A stretch of 64,000 bases of DNA from Clostridia bacterium (GTDB lineage: Bacteria > Bacillota > Clostridia > UMGS1883), in NCBI GenBank assembly GCA_017466275.1, contig JAFTUL010000013.1, positions 39,343-103,342 on the forward strand, given 5' to 3'. The notes under the pieces are model-generated. The model saw only the letters and a list, made by a program, of their open reading frames with translations, searched no databases and was not told where the DNA came from. Shown here piece after piece: positions 2,596-58,667 of this stretch (positions within the stretch are counted from its first letter, which is position 1; the number at the start of each line of letters is the position of its first letter). Made by a program: the position numbers and the translations under genes.

Positions 2596-3798
2596 TCATC
2601 TTTCGAGGAATCTTTTCATTATTGTATAACCGTCAGTGATTTTCTCCCCGTATTTTTCAGCATCCTTTTCGATAAAACGGTGTCCGGTGTTTGCACAGTC
2701 ACCCTTTTTGTACATTACGCAGGGAACAGGCTCTCTGCTGTGTGTTTTTGTGGCAATGGGTGTAGGATGGTCTGGCATTACCAAAAATGCGTAATCTTCG
2801 CCGGCCTCATCCAATTTTTCCTTTATATAACCGATTATTTTTTCATCAATAATTTCAAGAGAACGTGTTTTTCCCTCTGCATCACCCTGATGACCGCATT
2901 CGTCGGGAGCTTCAAGGTGAACGTACACCAAATCTGCACCGTCTTTTAAAAGTGCATCGGCAGAGGCTTTTGCCTTACCCTCGAAATTTGTGTGGAGATT
3001 TCCCGTAGCACCGTCAACATCAATGCTGTTCATTCCTGCAAGAATTGCAATCCCTTTTATAAGGTCAACTGCAGACACCACAGCACCCTTTTTACCGTAG
3101 GTTTCATAGAAATTGTTAAGTGCTGGCTTTGTACCCTCGCCCCAAATCCACATAGATGTTGCAGGATTCTTTCCCTCGGCAATTCTCTTTTGATTGATGG
3201 GATGGTTTTTAAGGATTTTTTCACTCTTTTTCATTAAATCGAGGATTCTTTCGTCGGAGGGGAGATAATCCTTGATTTTTCTGTCGGAAATGTCGTGGGG
3301 AGGTGTCAGGGTGAAGCTTTCGGGAGCATCATCCCACACGAAGAGGTGGCGGTAGCTGATTCCACCGTAGAAATGAATATCTCCGCCGCCAAGCTGCTTT
3401 TCGATTTCCGCCATAAGTGCACGGCTTTCCTCTGTTGTGATTTCGCCCGAGGAGTAGTCAAGCATAGTTTTGTCCTCGTAGTTTTCCTCGTCGGAAAGAG
3501 TTACAAGGTTTGCACGGAATGTAGTCTGGTTATCGGCAATTTTAACGCCGATAGAAGCCGCCTCCAGAGGAGAACGTCCAGTATAGCAATCAAGTGGATT
3601 ATATCCCATTACGGAAAGGTTTGCAACATCACTTCCCGGTTTGAGGGAGTCGGGAACGGTCTTTACAAGAAAAAGAGAACCGTTGGAAGCAAAGTAATCC
3701 ATGTTGGGAGTATTGCTTTTTTCAAGAGGGGTAAGTCCGCCTAAAGAATCTATCGGAAGGTCTGCACAGCCATCCGTAAGTACAATTACATATTTCAT
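2596..3798 (-). CDS. apgM: cofactor-independent phosphoglycerate mutase, archaeal-type (ApgM family)
   Basis: 400 aa. N-term MKYVIVLTDGCAD and alkaline-phosphatase-superfamily motifs typical of ApgM. Confidence 0.8.
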   Translation of the reverse strand: MKYVIVLTDGCADLPIDSLGGLTPLEKSNTPNMDYFASNGSLFLVKTVPDSLKPGSDVANLSVMGYNPLDCYTGRSPLEAASIGVKIADNQTTFRANLVTLSDEENYEDKTMLDYSSGEITTEESRALMAEIEKQLGGGDIHFYGGISYRHLFVWDDAPESFTLTPPHDISDRKIKDYLPSDERILDLMKKSEKILKNHPINQKRIAEGKNPATSMWIWGEGTKPALNNFYETYGKKGAVVSAVDLIKGIAILAGMNSIDVDGATGNLHTNFEGKAKASADALLKDGADLVYVHLEAPDECGHQGDAEGKTRSLEIIDEKIIGYIKEKLDEAGEDYAFLVMPDHPTPIATKTHSREPVPCVMYKKGDCANTGHRFIEKDAEKYGEKITDGYTIMKRFLER

Positions 3799-3909
3799 AT
3801 TATCATCGCCTTTCGCATTTTATTATAGCAATTTAAACAGGGGTTTTCAAGGAAAAATGTATAAAATTTGTTAAAAGGAGTAATTTATAACCTTAGAGGT
3901 GACTGAAAA

Positions 3910-5232
3910 ATGACTGATTCTTTAAAGAAAAACCGAATTCTTGTGATTTTATCCGTTCTTTTGATTGTGACGGGGATTTTTGCCTTTATGCAATACCGGC
4001 GGGCACAGAAGCTGACCTATTTTCAGAATGTCGAGTATAACAGAGTCTTTTCCGAGCTTAGCGAAAGTGTGGACGACCTTGAAATTTCCCTTTTAAAAGG
4101 GCAGGTAGTGTCAGGGGACAGCCAGCTTATAAAGCTTTCAGCCGACTTGTACGGTCAGGCAAGTGCAGCTAAGGCAAACCTTGCCCTGCTTCCGATGAAA
4201 GGACAGACCCTTGCAAAAACCTCCGAATTTCTGGCACAGGTAGGCGAATACGCCAACAGCTTGTCGGACAAGATGCTTCGGGGTGAGGAAATTTCTCAAA
4301 AGGAAATAACCACAATGCAGGAGCTTTTAGAGTATTCGAGAATCCTCAAAAAAGCCTTTGACAAAATGCTTGTCGACATAAATGAGGGAAAAATCTCTTT
4401 TTCGGATGATAAGAGTATTTCAGGAAGGCTTACCGGTGCAAAGGCAAGCCTTTCGGGAGAGCTTTCGGGATTGGAAGAGGAGTTTCACGATTATCCGTCG
4501 CTTATTTATGACGGACCGTTTTCACAGCATCTTACCCAGAAAGAATCAGTTTTCCTTAAAGGAAAGGCAGAAATTTCGCAAAAACAGGCAATAAAAAAAG
4601 CCCGTATTCTTACGGGAGAAGATGCAAAGAGTGTTACGGAAATAAAAGGAAAAATTCCGTCATATTCCGTTAATGGGAAAAACACTGTGGCTGAATTTAC
4701 AAAAAAGGGCGGAGTGCTTCTGCTTTATATGAAAGACAGAGTGTCGGAAAATGAAAAAATTTCCCTCAAAAGTGCAGACCAGTCTGCACAAAGGTTTCTT
4801 CGTGAAAACGGCTTTTTCGATATGACGGAAAGCTATTACGAGAAAAAAGACGGAAGTGTTGTTATAAATTATGCCTACAAACAAGATGAATATACGGTTT
4901 TCCCTGACCTTGTAAAGGTAAAGGTAGCCCTTGATAACGGTGAGGTAATAGGCTTTGAAAGCCTTGGGTATGTTACAAATCACATTTACAGACAGATTCC
5001 CGAGGAAAAAATAAGCAGTGAGGAAGCTCTTTCAAAAGTGGGGACACATCTTAAAACAGAAAGTGTCACAAAGGCAATAATCCCGCTTGACGACGGAACA
5101 GAAAAGGCTTGCTGGCAGATTCAGGGAACTGTTTCCGATAGACATTTCCTGATGTATGTAAATACCCAGACGGGCGATATTGAAGACGTACAAATTCTCC
5201 TTGAAAGCGACGGAGGAATTCTGGCAGTATAA
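3910..5232 (+). CDS. ypeB: germination protein YpeB-like (N-terminal TM anchor, PepSY-type C-terminus)
   Basis: 440 aa. N-terminal TM helix. Architecture and local similarity to B. subtilis YpeB (…YNRVFSEL…LALLPMKGQTLAKTSEFLAQVGEYA…). Confidence 0.6.
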   Translation: MTDSLKKNRILVILSVLLIVTGIFAFMQYRRAQKLTYFQNVEYNRVFSELSESVDDLEISLLKGQVVSGDSQLIKLSADLYGQASAAKANLALLPMKGQTLAKTSEFLAQVGEYANSLSDKMLRGEEISQKEITTMQELLEYSRILKKAFDKMLVDINEGKISFSDDKSISGRLTGAKASLSGELSGLEEEFHDYPSLIYDGPFSQHLTQKESVFLKGKAEISQKQAIKKARILTGEDAKSVTEIKGKIPSYSVNGKNTVAEFTKKGGVLLLYMKDRVSENEKISLKSADQSAQRFLRENGFFDMTESYYEKKDGSVVINYAYKQDEYTVFPDLVKVKVALDNGEVIGFESLGYVTNHIYRQIPEEKISSEEALSKVGTHLKTESVTKAIIPLDDGTEKACWQIQGTVSDRHFLMYVNTQTGDIEDVQILLESDGGILAV

Positions 5233-5436: not shown

Positions 5437-6180
5437 CTATAGTACTTTCCCTAAAAATTCTTTTAATCTGGGGTGTTTGGGATTTTGGAAGATTTCTTCG
5501 GGAGAGCCGGTTTCGGCTATTTTTCCCTCTTCCATAAAGATTACCTTGTCGGCAACCTCCTTTGCAAAGCCCATTTCGTGGGTAACAACAACCATTGTCA
5601 TACCCTCCTGTGCAAGCTCTTTCATAACCTCCAAAACTTCGCCTACCATTTCGGGGTCAAGCGCTGATGTAGGTTCGTCAAAAAGCATTACCTCTGGATT
5701 CATTGCAAGGGCACGGACAATTGCAATTCTCTGCTTCTGTCCGCCTGAAAGCTGACTGGGATAAGCATTTGCACGGTCTGCAAGACCTACTCTCTTAAGG
5801 AGACTTAATGCATTTTCTTCTGCGTCCTTTTTGTTTTGCCTCAGCAATTTTATAGGAGCAAGAGTGATGTTTTTGAGAATTGTCATATGGGGGAAGAGGT
5901 TAAACTGCTGGAAAACCATTCCCATCTTCTGTCGATGGAGATTAATGTTATTCTGAGGGTCGGTTATATTTACCCCCTCGAGAAAAATTTCTCCCTCCGT
6001 AGGAGTTTCAAGAAGATTGAGCGACCGCAGGAATGTGGATTTTCCGCATCCGCTGGGGCCTATAATAACGATAACCTCGCCCTTTTTGATTTCAAGGTCA
6101 ACTCCGTCAAGAGCCTTTACCGTTCCGCCTGTAAAATGCTTTTTCAGGCCGTTTACTTTTATGATTGTATTATCGCTCAC
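5437..6180 (-). CDS. amino-acid ABC transporter ATP-binding protein (GlnQ/ArtP family)
   Basis: Walker [10 protein letters not shown], signature LSGGQKQR, Walker [11 protein letters not shown]. Likely GTG start at 6180, 10 nt after AAGGAGG. The ATG at 6201 lies inside the RBS. Confidence 0.9.
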
Positions 6181-13821: not shown

Positions 13822-14661
13822 ATGAACGGAAAATTATACTTATGTGCAACGCCCATAGGAAACCTTGGCGATATTACACTGAGATGTGTTGAAACTCTCC
13901 GCACGGTTGACCTCATTGCGGCGGAGGATACAAGGAGGACTTTGGGACTGCTCAATCATTTGGAGATAGAAAAACCCCTTACAAGCTACTTTGAACATAA
14001 TAAAAAGGAAAAAGGCGAATATCTCATAAACGAAATGAGAAACGGCAAAAACATTGCCCTTGTCAGCGACGCAGGCACACCTGCCATAAGCGACCCTGGG
14101 GAGGATTTGGTGAAAATGTGTGCCGAGGCAGGGATAGATGTTGTTCCCATACCCGGTGCAGTGGCAGGAATCAATGCTCTTATTACAAGTGGGTTTTCTA
14201 CACAGCGGTTTGCGTTTGAGGGATTTCTGACCGTCAACAAACGAGGAAGAGCGGAACATCTTAAATCCCTTGTTGACGAGCAGAGAACAATGATTTTTTA
14301 CGAAGCACCGCACAAGCTGATGTCAACGCTCCGTGATATGCTCGAAACCTTTGGCGACAGGAGAATTGCTCTCTGCCGCGAGCTTACAAAAATTCACGAG
14401 GAGATTTACAGAACAACATTTACCGAAGCAATTGCAAGGTACGAGGAAAATCCCCCTCGCGGTGAATTTGTAATTGTCATTGAGGGTAAAAAGTCAGAGG
14501 ACCTTGCTTCCGAAAAGGAAGCCATATGGAAGACTATGTCCGTTTCCGACCATATTGAGATGTATATAAAGGATGGTATGACGGAAAAGGATGCCTTAAA
14601 AGCCGTGGCAAAAGACCGTGGCGTAAGTAAACGGGATATTTATAATGAATATAAGGTTTAA
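13822..14661 (+). CDS. rsmI: 16S rRNA (cytidine1402-2'-O)-methyltransferase
   Basis: LYLCATPIGNLGDIT... tetrapyrrole-methylase fold typical of RsmI. 279 aa. Confidence 0.85.
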   Translation: MNGKLYLCATPIGNLGDITLRCVETLRTVDLIAAEDTRRTLGLLNHLEIEKPLTSYFEHNKKEKGEYLINEMRNGKNIALVSDAGTPAISDPGEDLVKMCAEAGIDVVPIPGAVAGINALITSGFSTQRFAFEGFLTVNKRGRAEHLKSLVDEQRTMIFYEAPHKLMSTLRDMLETFGDRRIALCRELTKIHEEIYRTTFTEAIARYEENPPRGEFVIVIEGKKSEDLASEKEAIWKTMSVSDHIEMYIKDGMTEKDALKAVAKDRGVSKRDIYNEYKV

Positions 14662-14711
14662 AATGTATAGAAACCTTTAAAAAAGGAAACAAAGTTCCTC
14701 GGAGGCGAGGA

Positions 14712-14822
14712 GGCCCTTTGCCATTTTGAACGCCAAAATGGCGAAAAGCGGTGGGGAATCGGAACCCCCGCGTTTTTGGTACTTTTGGCTCCCAAAAGTA
14801 CATCGTCCCCTGCTATTCAGCA
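14712..14822. repeat. short copy of modular stem-loop repeat family (modules rcZ-rcY-rcX-HP1)
   Basis: Matches the reverse complement of modules in the 56.2 kb and 32.8 kb copies. tttgccattttgaacgccaaaatggcgaaaagcgg is exact. Hairpins ggggaatcggaaccccc, gtacttttggctcccaaaagtac and ctgctgaatagcag are present. Confidence 0.7.
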
Positions 14823-14865
14823 GAAGTTTATGCTTTTTTAAAAGCTTTTCTTTTATTTTTCCTTG

Positions 14866-14895
14866 ACAAACCGTGTATATAGTGGTAATATATCA
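14866..14895 (+). promoter_or_regulatory. sigma-A promoter of ACT-hom-lysC operon
   Basis: TTGACA, 17 nt spacer, TAATAT. Confidence 0.5.
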
Positions 14896-14924
14896 AAAGA
14901 CAAATGTACACAGGTGGTGGACAC

Positions 14925-15359
14925 ATGGAACAGAGGAAGCTTGTAATCGCCGATTTGTCGGTGCTTCCACCGGTTTATCACAAGGTTTTGAAGGTTAAGG
15001 AGCTTTTGGAATCGGGAGTGGCAGAAACGGTGAATGAAGCTGCCGATATGGCAGATGTTTCAAGAAGTGCGTATTATAAGTATAAGGACTATGTATTCCC
15101 TTTCAATCAGATGCAGGGAATCCTCACGCTCCTTATAGCAGTAATTGACCTAAAAGGTGTTCTCAGCGATATGCTCGCATTTATGAGTGATGCCGGATGC
15201 AATATTTTAACAATTAATCAGAATGTCCCCATAAACGGTGTGGCAAACATCACCGTAACGGTACAGACCGAACAGATGAAAGTCAGTACAGACAGACTTA
15301 TTACGGGACTTCAGACTATCCGCGGGGTGCGGAAAGTAAATATATTAGCAAAACAATAA
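14925..15359 (+). CDS. UPF0735 ACT domain-containing protein (PheB-like)
   Basis: SRSAYYKYKDYVFPF motif shared with B. subtilis PheB/UPF0735. ACT domain. Start MEQRK after GGTGG. Confidence 0.75.
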   Translation: MEQRKLVIADLSVLPPVYHKVLKVKELLESGVAETVNEAADMADVSRSAYYKYKDYVFPFNQMQGILTLLIAVIDLKGVLSDMLAFMSDAGCNILTINQNVPINGVANITVTVQTEQMKVSTDRLITGLQTIRGVRKVNILAKQ

Positions 15360-17910: not shown

Positions 17911-17937
17911 GAGTCCATAACGGACTCCTTTTTTGTA
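17911..17937 (+). terminator. lysC rho-independent terminator
   Basis: ggagtccataacggactcc followed by TTTTTTG. Confidence 0.75.
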
Positions 17938-17946
17938 TGTGTTTTT

Positions 17947-18045
17947 CTACGAACAAACTTTACCTCTCGCTGTACCTTTGTACAGCTTCGGGTACTCCCT
18001 TCGGGTTCAGTTTGTCCGTTCTGCAACATTTTCTCGTTGCCATTT
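17947..18045 (+). repeat. inverted-repeat element copy 1 (3' flank of cysK)
   Basis: ~75% identical to the reverse complement of 19019..19117. Compensatory changes preserve the internal hairpins. Confidence 0.7.
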
Positions 18046-18063: not shown

Positions 18064-18990
18064 TCATTTTGTAAACAATTCTGTGCTTAAATACCTCTCT
18101 CCGCTGTCGGGAAGAAGAACTACAATCGTTTTTCCCTTGTTTTCTTCTCTTTCGGCAAGGATTTTTGCACCGTGGAGAGCCGCACCTGAGGAAATTCCCA
18201 CAAGGAATCCCTCTTTTGTGGCGAGGGAACGGCCTGCAGTAAAGGCATCCTCTGCCTCAATTGTGATGATTTCATCACATATAGCTTTGTCAAAGGTGTC
18301 GGGAATAAAGTTTGCACCAATTCCCTGAATTTTATGGCTTCCGCTTCTGCCCTCGGTTATAAGGGGGGAGGAAGCAGGCTCAATCCCTACAATTTTTATG
18401 TCGGGATTTTTTTCTTTCAGATATTTTCCGGTACCGCTTATTGTTCCGCCCGTGCCGATGCCTGCAACGAATATATCTATTTTACCCTCGGTGTCTTCCC
18501 ATATTTCAGGACCTGTCGTTTCATAGTGGGTCTTAGGATTGTCGGGGTTTATGAACTGTCCGGGAATGAAGCTTCCCTCATATTTTTCTTTAAGCTCATT
18601 TGCTTTTTGCACAGCACCATTCATTCCAAGGCTTCCCTCGGTCAGAACAATTTCCGCACCGTAGGCTTTGAGAAGATTTCTCCTTTCAACGGACATAGTG
18701 TCGGGCATTGTGAGGATTAGCTTGTACCCCTTTGCCGCCGCAACGGATGCAAGTCCTATGCCTGTGTTTCCGCTTGTTGGCTCAATAATAACACTGCCCT
18801 CTGTAAGAAGCCCCTTTTTCTCCGCTTCCTCAATCATTTTTACGGCAATGCGGTCTTTACTGCTTCCTGCAGGGTTCATACATTCAAGCTTGGCAATGAT
18901 TTTTGCCCCGAGATTATTCTCTTTTTCATAATTGCAAAGCTCTAAAAGAGGGGTTTTCCCCACAAGCTCCGTTATCTTTTTATAAATCAT
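18064..18990 (-). CDS. cysK: cysteine synthase A (O-acetylserine sulfhydrylase)
   Basis: PLP-lysine motif SSKDR. Full-length CysK similarity. 308 aa. Confidence 0.9.
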   Translation of the reverse strand: MIYKKITELVGKTPLLELCNYEKENNLGAKIIAKLECMNPAGSSKDRIAVKMIEEAEKKGLLTEGSVIIEPTSGNTGIGLASVAAAKGYKLILTMPDTMSVERRNLLKAYGAEIVLTEGSLGMNGAVQKANELKEKYEGSFIPGQFINPDNPKTHYETTGPEIWEDTEGKIDIFVAGIGTGGTISGTGKYLKEKNPDIKIVGIEPASSPLITEGRSGSHKIQGIGANFIPDTFDKAICDEIITIEAEDAFTAGRSLATKEGFLVGISSGAALHGAKILAEREENKGKTIVVLLPDSGERYLSTELFTK

Positions 18991-19018: not shown

Positions 19019-19117
19019 AGAATGGGAGAAAGTAGTGCAGAATTGACAAACTGAACCCGCAGGGGTTACCCGAAGGCGTACGAGGGTACGTCGAGCGGTG
19101 AAGTTTGTCGATAGCAA
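19019..19117 (-). repeat. inverted-repeat element copy 2 (5' leader of cysK)
   Basis: Reverse complement aligns with 17947..18045. Lies between the likely cysK promoter and the start codon. Confidence 0.7.
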
Positions 19118-19254
19118 AACGAAGTAATAATAGGAATTTGCAAAAAGCAAATTCCTACTAAAAACAATCAAAGAAAAAATGTTTTCGCATTTAATAAAAG
19201 TAATCAATATATATTCTTTTCGTTTTGCGGTCGGTGCTGCTTTATCACATTCGC

Positions 19255-31502: not shown

Positions 31503-31506
31503 AACA

Positions 31507-31645
31507 AAATTCCGCTGAGTAGCGGAGGACGATGTGCTTTTGGGAGCCAAAAGATTTTATAGGGGAACAGGGGGATTGCGATTTCCCCCTTAGCTCCCCT
31601 ATGACCCCATAACCCCTTGAAACGCCCTCGCAGGGGCGTAATATT
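31507..31645. repeat. short copy of modular stem-loop repeat family (HP1-X-Y-W modules)
   Basis: ccgctgagtagcgg, cttttgggagccaaaag, gggggattgcgatttccccc and acgccctcgcaggggcgt are hairpins homologous to modules at 56.2 kb. Confidence 0.7.
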
Positions 31646-31958
31646 TATTGGGCGTGGTTTTCTTTAACTGTCGGGTTTTGTTTTTGAAACTGCCTTGCCT
31701 TTGCGACATCTAAATGCATTGATAAACTTATTATCAGGCATTTATAAATTCTGTCCGCCCGCAGAGGAAAATGATGCGGACAGAATTTTGTCGGTCGGCT
31801 TCGTTGTTTCAAAAACAGTAGTTTGCGAGTATAAAAAACAGAAAAATTCAAAATATAAAAGCGTATAGCATATTAAAACTCTATAAGATACTTCCTAAAA
31901 AATAGTCAATAGAATATACTAATAATACTTAATCTATGCTATTTGCTTGGAGGATTGT

Positions 31959-32582: not shown

Positions 32583-32622
32583 AAGACACAAAAAGGGGCA
32601 GGTCTCCTTTTTGTGTCTTTCT
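32583..32622 (+). terminator. terminator after AbrB-like gene
   Basis: gacacaaaaagg...cctttttgtgtc 12 bp stem followed by TTTCTGTTT. Confidence 0.7.
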
Positions 32623-32640
32623 GTTTGAGAAGAAAAGGTG

Positions 32641-32925
32641 GGTTTTGAGAAATTCTTTGTTGACTGGCGTAAAAATCGCTCGTATCAACTTCCTTTGCTG
32701 ACGAGCGATTTTTAGTCCGCAAGGAAATAAGTTTTCCTTTTAGGACGGCGACACCAAAACAAATAATTTCGAAAAACAAAACCATTTTTGTTATTAAGAA
32801 CAAGTATTTGCTTTCTTACGCCCCTGCGAGGGCGTTGAGGGGAGTGGGGAGAATCGCAACTCCCCACCGCTTTTCGCCATTTTGGCGTTCAAAATGGCAA
32901 AGGTCTCTGCGACTCCGCAGAATGG
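32641..32925. repeat. long copy R1 of modular stem-loop repeat family (L-W-Y-Z-HP1rc)
   Basis: 32641..32820 is the reverse complement of 56286..56465. 32818..32920 carries W (acgcccctgcgagggcgt), Y (ggggagaatcgcaactcccc), Z (cgccattttggcgttcaaaatggc) and ctgcgactccgcag. Confidence 0.8.
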
Positions 32926-33013
32926 CTTGCACTTGTGCAAAAAGTTTGAATTTTTTGCAACCAAAAAGGGAATCCAAAAACGAGGATTCCCTTTGTTGTA
33001 TTTAAAAAGTTTT

Positions 33014-36860: not shown

Positions 36861-36937
36861 TGGGTATCAGTCCTTTTGCTAAAAGGTATTTTGTCGAAAA
36901 ATTTGTTTTTGATTGCAGAAGTGCAAACTATTCTTCT

Positions 36938-37232
36938 TGAGCACTAAACTACGGCTTTTGCAAATTTTCTGTCGGCTACCGTGAAATTGCGAGCACCATT
37001 TTCCTCTGCTGGCGAGCAATTTCAGGCGAACAGGCAACTGAGTGTTGCCTTAAAGCCGGCGGTTCAAAGACGGAAAATTTACAAAAACGAAAACAATACA
37101 GTAAAAGAAAACCACGCCCGCAAAGGGACACGCCCCTGCGAGGGCGTTGAGGGGAGTGGGGAGAATCGCAACTCCCCACCGCTTTTCGCCATTTTGGCGT
37201 TCAAAATGGCAAAGCCCTTAATCGGCACCGAT
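36938..37232. repeat. copy R3 of modular stem-loop repeat family (M-W-Y-Z-end hairpin)
   Basis: ~90% identical to 56467..56766, including acgcccctgcgagggcgt, ggggagaatcgcaactcccc, cgccattttggcgttcaaaatggc and the terminal taatcggcaccgatta hairpin. Confidence 0.8.
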
Positions 37233-37264
37233 TAGTTTTGTTTCTTTTTAAAAGAACCTTATCA

Positions 37265-56090: not shown

Positions 56091-56177
56091 TGAAAACTCA
56101 CCTCAAGGATATTTTACTCTCTTTTACGATTGTGCGTATACGCACACGCGTGCTACACTGCAAGATTTGCAAACAAT

Positions 56178-56766
56178 TTCTGCGGAGTCGCAGAGGACGG
56201 TGTACTTTTGGGAGCCAAAAGTACCAAAAACGCGGGGGTTCCGATTCCCCCGCACCCCTGAAACGGCCTCGCAGGGGCGTAAAAAAGCAAATACTTGTTT
56301 TTAATTACAAAGATGGTTTTGTTTTTCGAAATTATTTGTTTTTGTGTCGCCGTCCTAAAAGGAAAACTTATTTCCTTGCGGACTAAAAATCGCTCGTCAG
56401 CAGCGGAAGTTGATACGAGCGATTTTTACGCCAGTCAACAAAGAATTTCTCAAAACCCGACTGTTCTACCGAAGCACTAAACTAAGGTTTTTGCAAATTT
56501 TCTGTCGGCTACCGTGAAATTGCGAGTATTAGTTTCCTCTGCAGGCGAGCAATTTCAGGCGAACAGGCAACTGAGTGTTGCCTTAAAGCCGACGGTTCAA
56601 AGACGGAAAATTTGCAAAAACGAAAACGATACATTAAAAGAAAACCACGCCCAAGAAATATTACGCCCCTGCGAGGGCGTTGAGGGGTGTGGGGAGAATC
56701 GCAACTCCCCACCGCTTTTCGCCATTTTGGCGTTCAAAATGGCACTCCCCTAATCGGCTCCGATTA
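56178..56766. repeat. largest composite copy R2 of modular stem-loop repeat family (HP1-X-Y-W / rcL / M / W-Y-Z-end hairpin)
   Basis: 56180..56280 carries the ctgcggagtcgcag, gtacttttgggagccaaaagtac, gggggttccgattccccc and acggcctcgcaggggcgt hairpins. 56286..56465 is the reverse complement of 32641..32820. 56467..56766 is ~90% identical to 36938..37232. Confidence 0.8.
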
Positions 56767-56845
56767 AATACCTGCAATTTCTTGCAATAAAAAACAAAAT
56801 TTTGCAATAAAAAATACTTTTTTGCTAAAAGTATGCGAAAAACTC

Positions 56846-56875: not shown

Positions 56876-57120
56876 ATAATAAGCAAACGATTTCTTTGGA
56901 ATCTTAATGCAAATATAGGACCACTCTCATGGGAGTCGAGGCCATACGGACAGCCGGGTCCACTGCCTATTGATTGAGTTAAAAGCTCAGTTTTATAAGT
57001 TGGTTACTTTATAACCGAAATGCGTAATTGCGCTAACTTGTGAAATGGTCAATAAGAGTAGTGACTCTGTATGTCCAATATCTTAAATTTTCTTAGGAAA
57101 TTTGTCTTTTTTGAGATATT

Positions 57121-57179: not shown

Positions 57180-58667
57180 ATGGCAAACAACGTAATCATT
57201 GAACTTAAAAATGTATCCAAGCATTTCGGGCAGACGTATGCTGTGGAGGATTTCAACCTTTATGTCAAGAAAGGGGAATTTGTAACCTTTTTGGGACCAA
57301 GCGGATGCGGAAAGACTACCACTCTCCGAATGATTGCAGGATTTGAGCTTCCTACGGGCGGACAAATTCTCCTAAACGGGGAGGATATTTCCCTGCTTCC
57401 GCCGTACAAACGCCCTGTAAATACTGTATTCCAGAAGTATGCTCTTTTTCCTCATATGGATGTGTATGACAACATTGCTTTCGGTCTGAAGCTGAAGAAA
57501 ATTCCCGACGGGGAAAAGACGAGAAAGCTTACCAAAGAGGAAATTGACAAAAAAGTCAGGAAAGCTCTTAAAATAGTTGACCTTGAAGAGTACGAAAACC
57601 GTGATATATCCACCCTTTCAGGCGGTCAGCAGCAGAGAATTGCCATTGCCCGTGCTATTGTAAATGAGCCTGAAATTCTTCTCCTTGACGAGCCTTTGGG
57701 TGCTCTCGATTTGAAAATGAGAAAGGATATGCAGCTTGAACTTAAGGAAATGCACAAGAAACTCGGCATCACCTTTATATACGTAACTCACGACCAGGAG
57801 GAGGCACTTACTCTCTCCGACACGATTGTGGTTATGAAAGACGGTATGATTCAGCAAATCGGCACTCCCGAGGATATTTATAACGAGCCCAGCAATGCCT
57901 TTGTCGCAAACTTCATCGGTGAAAGCAATATTTACAGCGGTACGGTGACGGGCGACAAAAAAGTCAGATTTATAAACCACGTTTTTGATTGTGTTGACGA
58001 ATTCCCGAAAAATGAAAAGGTTGATGTGGTAATCCGTCCCGAGGATGTTCATATTACAAGTGCTGACAGCGGTATGGCAAAAGGCAAAATTGTCAGCAAA
58101 ATTTTCAAGGGCATCCACTACGAATACATAATGATGGTTGGCAGAAACGAGCTTGTCATAGTTGATACAAGGGATTTGAATGTGAACGAAACCTACGGCT
58201 TTGACATTGAGCCTGACGGTATTCACATTATGAAAAAGGAACTTACCTCCAATATCTACAATGATGCCTACATTGACAAGGAAAACCGTGTTGTTATTTC
58301 CGAATGTCCCTTTGAATGTGACATTACTTCTCTTGTGCAAGGCTCTATCGTTGACAGTGAGGGCTATGTTGTAGGCCCTGACGGTACACGTTACGACTTT
58401 ACTGATGCGGATGTCCGTGCAGAAATCGGACTCAAGGATATTGAAATCCTCGACGACGAGGAAGCAGGTGTCGTAAAGGGTGAGATTGTTTCCATTATAT
58501 ATAAGGGTGACCATTATCAGCTTACAATCCGCACTCCCGAGGATGAAGATTTTGTTCTTGATACTGAATATACATATGACGAGAACGACCTTGTAGGTCT
58601 TAATGTACGCCCTCAGGACATAAAGCTTACATTGAAAGGAGAGGCGAAGAAATATGCAAAAAAATAA
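57180..58667 (+). CDS. potA: spermidine/putrescine ABC transporter ATP-binding protein PotA with extended C-terminal TOBE region
   Basis: Walker [10 protein letters not shown], signature LSGGQQQR, Walker [12 protein letters not shown]. 495 aa, ~120 aa longer than a typical PotA. Confidence 0.85.

Follow-up and report, generated by a model that had tools for sequence, protein, structure and literature searches.

Repetitive extragenic palindromic (REP) sequences, bacterial interspersed mosaic elements (BIMEs) and the REPIN-RAYT systems of Proteobacteria are high-copy, intergenic, hairpin-forming repeats in which compensatory change keeps the stems paired. They occur as inverted doublets or mosaic clusters, are non-autonomous, serve as targets for insertion sequences (ISs), and are thought to act as single-stranded DNA. 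Repeats resembling miniature inverted-repeat transposable elements (MITEs), such as BOX and RUP of Streptococcus pneumoniae, bcr1 of the Bacillus cereus group and Correia/NEMIS of Neisseria, are also non-autonomous and intergenic, 100 to 700 bp long, with an inverted-repeat architecture, internal-deletion derivatives and, for BOX, a modular build. For bcr1, a predicted RNA structure with compensatory changes has been reported. Here we describe a mosaic repeat made of hairpins in a 64,000-nucleotide stretch of a Clostridia bacterium genome (contig JAFTUL010000013.1; the whole stretch is called 'the window' below), where it was flagged at an intergenic site near 14.7 kb. In behaviour it appears nearest to REPIN/BIME sequences and to structured MITE-like repeats, with which it shares the traits just listed, and it does not appear to be a member of any of these groups.

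The preliminary description of this stretch had pointed to short repeat copies whose stems differ but stay paired around a constant loop. The repeat is real, but its unit is longer than the short copy, which represents the distal portion of two arms, each about 300 nt long, belonging to a head-to-head element of about 650 to 700 bp. Repeat finding and blastn within the window yielded five further arms of about 300 nt (Table 1). The window copies align over 76 to 310 nt at 75 to 92% identity, and the five full arms align end to end at 60 to 90%; an 18-nt motif of the hairpin named D occurs five times, compared to 0.00 expected in shuffled sequence. One scan of the GTDB species-representative genomes with this D motif gave 86 loci (designated L with a number), nearly all from gut or rumen metagenome-assembled genomes (MAGs) labelled Clostridia, Oscillospiraceae or Acutalibacteraceae. 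For the 3' domain of the arm, a covariance model, R1, was built and run on the window and 85 loci (86 sources, 636 kb) and gave 150 matches, seven of them in the window. About 50 matches have no exact D motif, and many lie at contig ends, the contigs breaking at the repeat. In 80 metagenome loci with more distant rsmI homologs (at most 67% amino acid identity), only three R1 matches were obtained, all near the E-value cutoff. The family is a high-copy interspersed mosaic repeat in a clade of uncultured gut and rumen Clostridia/Oscillospiraceae.

Most often, two different, homologous arms of about 300 to 340 nt, which share about 65 to 70% identity, are joined head to head into one unit. Such dimers form 35 blocks, with 3' domains facing outward and 265 to 685 nt apart; where both arms could be typed, none had a B-stem type common to the two arms. 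About 42 arms with room for a partner are solo, and four blocks are 'mini-dimers' with differing fusion points, namely that of the window at 14.7 kb (fused at Y), L039 (fused at D), L026 and L062. Outward from the centre, an arm consists of a long-range closing helix P1, hairpins P3 and P4, an A-rich linker, hairpins D and Y, an invariant TTTT, hairpin B and the terminal hairpin T. Many copies add an AT-rich outer hairpin, U, and past it they are no longer similar to one another. Stems grow hypervariable towards the outer end and loops and linkers are conserved, among them the 17-nt P3 loop (ATCAnTTTCCkYTGCnG), the P4 loop (TAAGT/TGAGT), the Y loop (AATCG[G/C]AA) and the C/T-rich T loops (ACTC, CTC, CA, CT). 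By their homologous positions in the alignment, GTAC-type and GCCA-type hairpins both count as forms of B, and the stems CTGCG/CGCAG, CCGCT/AGCGG and AATCGG/CCGATT as forms of T. Some arms carry an insert of 22 nt (arm E5 of the window is one) or of about 105 nt between D and Y, the longer one being a folded module of its own with compensatory changes. This module (L031 2850-2965) was seen in ten arms (L031, L013, L034, L042, L054, L057, L066, L072, L075 and L078), and an arm carrying it, scanned at an E-value threshold, gave no Rfam match for it.

The individual hairpins quoted in the preliminary description could be located. Three T hairpins stand at the positions given for them (ctgcgGAGTcgcag at 56180-56193, ccgctGAGTagcgg at 31512-31525 and ctgcgACTCcgcag at 32907-32920); another exists as well (ctgctATTCagcag on the + strand), but at 14810-14823, about 4 nt away from the 14806-14820 first assigned to it. 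The quoted Y hairpins are present at 56232-56253, 31570-31589 and 32844-32867, and the Y stem covaries across copies. Variable stems around conserved loops are a property of the 150 matches generally, as seen for the ACTC/CTC form of the T loop and for the Y, P4 and P3 loops.

The flagged site lies in the intergenic region 14662-14903, which is flanked by a TP_methylase (rsmI-like) gene (13822-14661) and a gene with an ACT domain (14904-15359). R1 matches it on both strands, at 14684-14803 (-) and 14728-14836 (+), and five to seven hairpins are predicted in the fold of 14674-14845. The two halves of this copy are the ends of two kinds of arm, the left one in reverse complement. Its left-arm B hairpin is identical to 32876-32898, 37188-37210 and 56721-56743, its right-arm B to the reverse complement of 56202-56224, and its left-arm T hairpin is present in the same form in the ortholog L008. 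Because the orthologous sites hold full dimers of about 680 bp (L073 and L054) or full arms (L008/L012), the window copy is a derivative of a full dimer that has lost its centre by internal deletion. At the right-arm T position, the T hairpins of L073 and L054 differ in stem, and all are fully paired. Small open reading frames (ORFs) lie beyond the arms in L008/L012. Those of L012 (2180-2677, minus-strand reading; MAG JAZUPX01) lie beyond the 5' end of the arm, one coding for 73 amino acids and the other being partial and ribbon-helix-helix-like, and the contig stops there; they suggest a cargo or an insertion at the dimer centre.

Maintenance of pairing was assessed on a model-fitted alignment of 147 distinct rows and 28 pairs, the null being 500 shuffles as well as partners slid by 1 to 3 columns. 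Paired cells represented 90.8%, compared to 72.9% in shuffles. Changes on both sides were found in 24 of the 28 pairs and in 669 cells (204 in shuffles), and the covariation score was 0.382, compared to 0.111 in shuffles (reached by 0 of 500) and at most 0.078 with slid partners. Even a structure-blind MAFFT alignment, partly out of register, scored 0.250 compared to 0.114 (0 of 500 shuffles). An independent parse of 70 distinct 3' domains gave 23 stem variants for Y and 15 for B. In the B stem, positions 5 to 8 from the loop each show two to four Watson-Crick pair types (three at depths 5 and 6), with zero mismatches at depths 5 and 6, one non-Watson-Crick cell at depth 7 and three at depth 8. 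The terminal hairpins are of 44 distinct kinds among the 60 copies having one, and of 108 distinct regions, 81% have a stem of 5 bp or more after B, compared to 12% of dinucleotide shuffles. P1, P3 and P4 have 27 to 32 distinct Watson-Crick variants each, with conserved loops; the count was 28 to 29 for P3, and for P4 it varied from 17 to 32 with the stringency of the parse. An uninterrupted P1 run of at least 8 bp was present in 67% of arms and 3% of shuffles, and only 12 internal mismatches were met in 210 distinct hairpins.

This pairing pattern is far beyond chance, and stems are free to change provided that Watson-Crick pairing is kept. The preliminary description had made its case depend on covariation persisting when more copies were aligned: on the 150 matches the signal is strongly positive, no shuffle of 500 reaching the score, and the observation is confirmed, since the covariation, stem-variant and T-hairpin-null tests all gave positive results. 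We infer that selection on a folded single strand, of either RNA or DNA, preserves the hairpins. Some of the differences in stem sequence among copies are due to module exchange and not to point-by-point compensation, and substitution counts made ortholog by ortholog were too noisy, owing to large indels and module swaps between arms. An additional contact is possible: in 64 of 114 sequences (permutation p about 0.02), the linker triplet directly ahead of TTTT is complementary to the opening triplet of the B loop, and between L011 (CGC/GCG) and L063 (TGC/GCA) the two triplets switch together on an otherwise identical background, but the pairing fails in the large GCGT/GCTCC class. The claim that the copies are not decayed coding sequence also stands, because the changes are compensatory, the indels do not come in threes, and the reverse-strand frames are wholly different between subfamilies. 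Predicted ORFs do overlap the arms; as coding sequence they were rejected, the start codon not being conserved (ATG/TTG/CTG/ACG) and the downstream frames differing between subfamilies. On the reverse strand, the P3 loop reads as a Shine-Dalgarno-like AGAGGAAA plus ATG.

Perfect stems might also arise with no structural selection at all, if template switching within a strand and gene conversion kept them perfect, each compensatory change being a single event. Several features would agree with such a mutational origin: nearly all stem pairs are Watson-Crick and G.T intermediates are few, double changes often take the form of transversion pairs (CG and AU at a single position, for example), whole modules are swapped between otherwise near-identical orthologous copies, and orthologous T hairpins differ at 4 of 5 pairs within flanks that are about 86% identical. 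Neutral drift and template switching do not predict, however, that loops and linkers (TAAGT, AATCG[G/C]AA, the 17-nt P3 loop and TTTT) should be strongly conserved over the same divergence. The long-range P1, whose two sides are more than 100 nt apart, covaries too, and ten separate helices hold their position across subfamilies that are only 60 to 70% identical. A mutational origin explains some of the features but not the conserved loops, and as an account of the whole we find it quite improbable.

Copies of the repeat lose one arm or the centre by deletion, and swap modules with other copies. At a site downstream of PFK (with identical PFK protein), a dimer is present in L171 and L178, and a single arm in the window and L173; the junction shows an AGAA microhomology, consistent with loss of one arm between AGAA repeats. 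In the sister species L028, whose flanks are about 95% identical, the element is absent from this site and an unrelated 160-nt filler is found there, so that presence/absence polymorphism between close relatives (dimer, one arm or none) is observed. The orthologous dimers of L041 and L042 are about 97% identical except for one arm. In L042, a deletion between GAAGCTT repeats has removed the 5' domain of this arm, and the arm has acquired the 105-nt module, which is absent from the orthologous arm of L041; modules therefore move between copies.

The elements are strictly intergenic, and their arms point towards gene ends in 58 cases and towards gene starts in 46, which is no preference. For this reason, a role as cis-regulatory 5' leader was rejected. 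More generally, the repeats could be cis signals domesticated by the host, such as insulators or bidirectional terminators, mRNA-stabilising 3' structures, or binding sites for nucleoid proteins or topoisomerase, as proposed for some REP/BIME sequences. Their intergenic placement, their presence at the same intergenic sites in several species (for example, the rsmI/ACT-gene site in the window, L054, L073 and L008/L012), the inclusion of terminator-like hairpins, and the position of arm E1 between two convergent terminators would all be expected of such signals. But gene ends are not preferred over gene starts, strains and sister species differ, at one and the same site, in whether the element is present and whether it has one arm or two, and a 300-nt multi-domain fold with conserved loops far exceeds what termination or stabilisation needs. 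We hold this explanation to be very improbable.

Foreign sequence splits the Y loop at one and the same point, GGGGGAAT^, in four copies: L043 45-166 (-), L048 1355-1474 (+), L065 5942-6091 (+) and L090 4578-4665 (+). These insertions start with TGTCAAG... or GTATAG... and contain repeated GTTTACA motifs; that of L065 adds a ribosome-binding site and the start of an ORF (MPWKDISK). They look like the ends of ISs that target the Y loop, by analogy with the ISs that target REP sequences, and the IS bodies fall outside the sequence examined.

Compared with the described systems, the differences are as marked as the likenesses. The REP-like or IS200/IS605-end-like character proposed in the preliminary description is sound as an analogy, but the defining features that were tested were either absent or could not be shown. 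Like the REP doublets and mosaic clusters, the repeat forms head-to-head dimers, mini-dimers and mosaic combinations of modules. A REP unit, however, is a single imperfect palindrome of about 20 to 40 nt with a conserved GTAG-type 5' motif, whereas the present arm has about 300 nt and about ten helices, no conserved tetranucleotide flanks its hairpins, and its pair joins two different, anciently diverged arm types. The host belongs to a Clostridia clade and not to the Proteobacteria, and no RAYT, the Y1 HUH transposase whose gene typically has REP copies on its flanks, was found in the about 1.2 Mb examined. Relative to the MITE-like repeats, the outer ends are the most variable part, the fold consists of local hairpins and a junction instead of one long fold-back, and no sequence similarity to BOX, RUP, bcr1 or Correia/NEMIS was found. 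Where a classical MITE is expected to have terminal inverted repeats corresponding to those of an autonomous IS of the same genomes, the arms here form long inverted repeats, 65 to 70% identical.

A second group of systems, comprising the IS200/IS605 ends, PATE elements and the omega/HEARO RNAs associated with TnpB/IscB, resembles the repeat in that hairpins function in single-stranded nucleic acid, and in having complex, multi-copy structured scaffolds, some copies of which have no ORF. But the left and right ends of IS200/IS605 elements have different subterminal hairpins on one strand and are not inverted copies of each other, and these elements insert 3' of a fixed tetra- or pentanucleotide with no target-site duplication; the arms described here are homologous, inverted and alignable over their full length. 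As for the omega, HEARO and IS605-orfB RNAs, there is neither an Rfam match nor an adjacent tnpB or iscB gene. Integron attC sites also conserve structure while leaving sequence free and are recognised as a folded single strand. They are, however, single hairpins of 57 to 141 nt in one orientation next to intI, whereas the mosaic repeats are dispersed, in both orientations, much larger and mostly without a cargo gene. A likeness to a cassette is seen at one locus, L033, where two inverted 3' domains (2827-4406) bracket a gene of the PDDEXK_4 nuclease family coding for 424 amino acids. The orthologous site of L011 (5890-6987) has a different ORF of 303 amino acids, without Pfam match, and at both loci the adjacent trmL-like gene takes its final codons and its stop from the mosaic element. 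The PDDEXK_4 protein was set aside as a mobilising enzyme, being a single case with a different ORF at the orthologous site.

Searches for a known family or origin gave the following results. No Rfam family matched the mosaic repeat at the gathering threshold in the window and 18 loci; at an E-value threshold, the window dimer and the arm with the 105-nt module gave only unrelated matches (across all Rfam scans, these were ldcC RNA, T-box and S10 leader). No tRNA or tmRNA origin was found. The plasmid and phage collections gave no blastn match, and among viral contigs there was only one chance match (L004), which R1 did not recognise; a second motif retrieved no viral contig. An origin from phages or plasmids was accordingly rejected. 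A literature search by sequence strings and keywords found no description of the repeat in the papers searched, so that it is undescribed in Rfam or in those papers.

The reading that we favour, although we hold it with about as much doubt as confidence, is that the mosaic repeat is a non-autonomous selfish DNA of the REPIN/BIME/MITE kind whose hairpins act in single-stranded nucleic acid. In its favour are the copy number and spread of the repeat, its dimer and mini-dimer architecture, the constraint on its structure, the variation between strains and sister species, and its independence from flanking genes, together with the IS ends in the Y loop. The hairpins would work single-stranded, as DNA or as a transcript; a trans-acting protein would read the loops sequence-specifically, the stems merely presenting them; amplification would depend on a hairpin-recognising enzyme encoded elsewhere, and the family would persist as selfish DNA. 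About ten helices covary and the loops are fixed, and therefore some machinery, cellular or encoded by an element, must read the repeat.

A number of results weigh against this selfish-DNA reading. No partner was recovered: the search for a cognate transposase, recommended in the preliminary description, detected no IS200-type Y1 protein in the six-frame ORFs of about 1.2 Mb (window and all loci), using phmmer with two IS200/IS608-type TnpA queries and a motif regular expression. No TnpA, TnpB or IscB gene adjoins any copy, no IS with the same ends as the arms was seen in the window and loci sequence, and no candidate mobilising enzyme or recurrent neighbour was found among the neighbouring ORFs; the 585 that were clustered showed no enriched protein family, only orthologous housekeeping contexts. 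Traces of insertion were not found either. Four flanking-protein look-ups (which led mostly to contigs ending in the repeat) and a pairing of flanks across all loci gave no clean empty site, the single short site recovered being that of L028 with its filler, and inspection by eye of the flanks of 100 copies revealed no common duplicated motif, so that a target-site duplication of the kind expected of a classical MITE could not be shown. Variability peaks in the outermost hairpins, contrary to what is seen at the ends of classical transposons. Finally, with its multi-helix junction, conserved loops, structured expansions and partial linker/B-loop pairing, the fold is far more elaborate than that of any known REP or MITE, and looks like that of a functional RNA.

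In the main rival reading, the arms would be genes of a new structured non-coding RNA class, about 250 to 300 nt in length and transcribed divergently from the dimer centre; we see this as possible, though we would not expect it. The RNA would comprise P1, P3, P4, D and Y, ending at Y and a U run or running on through B, T and U. Its C/U-rich loops (UUUCCUCUGC, CUC, CCUC) would bind a protein or purine-rich RNA targets, and its genes would be multiplied like a mobile RNA gene, or would serve a mobile element as HEARO/omega RNAs do. Multiple covarying helices with conserved loops and junctions are what such genes should show, as are the 22-nt and ~105-nt structured expansions at one fixed site with their own covariation (exchanges of U.G to C-G included), the possible linker/B-loop pseudoknot, and the independence of the arms from the orientation of flanking genes. 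Three further observations favour RNA genes and count at the same time against selfish DNA: the GC-rich Y stem with its invariant TTTT scores terminator-like; the dimer centre of L006 has divergent promoter-like sites (TTCACA-17-TAAACT and ATGAAA-17-TATAGT); and G.T is the commonest mismatch on the outward strand (11 compared to 4 A.C in strict counts, 103 compared to 70 in the model alignment). On the other hand, the promoter-like motif of L006 is not conserved in the window copies, and pairing is kept no less well in B, T and U, which lie past the putative terminator. G.U accounts for few pairs (roughly 1 to 3%), many double changes are transversion pairs, no Rfam family matches, and minimum free energy favours no strand consistently, the outward one included. 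About one arm per 10 kb would also be unusually dense for a trans-acting RNA.

A larger RNA has been considered along the same lines. Each arm would encode a member of a new class of about 250 to 340 nt that combines a multi-helix junction, at least five hairpins and perhaps a pseudoknot; transcription would proceed outward from the middle of the pair, and the class would be confined to a clade of uncultured gut Oscillospirales. We rate this proposal as rather unlikely. In one variant of it, the RNA could belong to a mobile or RNA-guided system not recognised so far, and its transcripts would extend from the conserved scaffold into flanking DNA as TnpB reRNAs do; in another, the RNA could have a regulatory role, at very high copy number and with loops resembling anti-Shine-Dalgarno sequences.

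If the density in the window is typical, the family would make up at least about a percent of the genomes across a whole clade of common uncultured gut bacteria, and it breaks the metagenomic assemblies of this clade. The element serves as a marker for places in these genomes where rearrangement, cargo insertion and IS targeting are concentrated. Identifying the partner of the repeat would reveal a new class of large non-coding RNA or else, in Firmicutes, a new mobilisation system that depends on hairpins, and a covariance model is ready for annotating the element in these genomes.

Table 1. Parts of the mini-dimer and full arms of the mosaic repeat, in window positions
Feature	Position	Strand	Details
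Mini-dimer	14674-14845	none	distal 3' parts of two arms, inverted, fused at a common Y hairpin
Outer hairpin U', left arm	14674-14686		CCTTT AAA AAAGG
Terminal hairpin T, left arm	14697-14710	-	CCTCG CCTC CGAGG on minus strand; CCTCG GAGG CGAGG on + strand
Hairpin B, left arm, GCCA type	14720-14742	-	GCCATTTTG GCGTT CAAAATGGC on minus strand
Common Y hairpin	14750-14771	+	core GGGG AATCGGAA CCCC
T run after Y	14773-14777	+	
Hairpin B, right arm, GTAC type	14779-14801	+	GTACTTTTGG CTC CCAAAAGTAC
Terminal hairpin T, right arm	14810-14823	+	CTGCT ATTC AGCAG
Outer hairpin U, right arm	14832-14845	+	GCTTTT TT AAAAGC
Arm E5, full	31505-31830	-	has P1; P3 31746-31789; P4 31720-31736; D 31623-31638; Y 31570-31589; B 31537-31553; T 31512-31525
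Arm E1, full, solo	32622-32940	+	P1 from 32640; P3 32671-32713; P4 32721-32739; D 32819-32834; Y 32844-32867; B 32876-32898; T 32907-32920; U 32926-32940
Arm E3, full, solo	36927-37257	+	full dimer at the same site in other strains; P1 from 36953; P3 36981-37023; P4 37032-37050; D 37131-37146; Y 37156-37179; B 37188-37210; T 37219-37234; U 37240-37257
Arm E2, left half of head-to-head dimer	56159-56476	-	P1 start at 56443-56458; P3 56385-56427; P4 56359-56377; D 56264-56279; Y 56232-56253; B 56202-56224; T 56180-56193; U 56159-56172
Arm E4, right half of head-to-head dimer	56460-56786	+	P1 from 56486; P3 56514-56556; P4 56565-56583; D 56664-56679; Y 56689-56712; B 56721-56743; T 56751-56766; U 56773-56786

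Arms E2 and E4 stand head to head and have a 17-nt central segment (56460-56476) in common. Between E4 and an ABC-transporter operon that starts at 57180, upstream of the operon, a match to Rfam RF02440 (SpF59/ldcC RNA) was found at 56918-56969 (+), with 59.9 bits compared to a gathering score of 37.2. A second hairpin repeat, TTAAGGGGA-N-TCCCCTTAA, unrelated to the mosaic repeat and absent from the window, was seen in L028 (about 4290-4330), L035, L038 and L065 (about 5590-5615); in these MAGs it sometimes adjoins or replaces the mosaic element. The window also contains a 110-nt inverted repeat (17926-18035 and 19026-19135, 75% complementary), again unrelated to the mosaic repeat, which flanks a gene of the PALP family (pyridoxal-phosphate enzyme) at 18064-18990.

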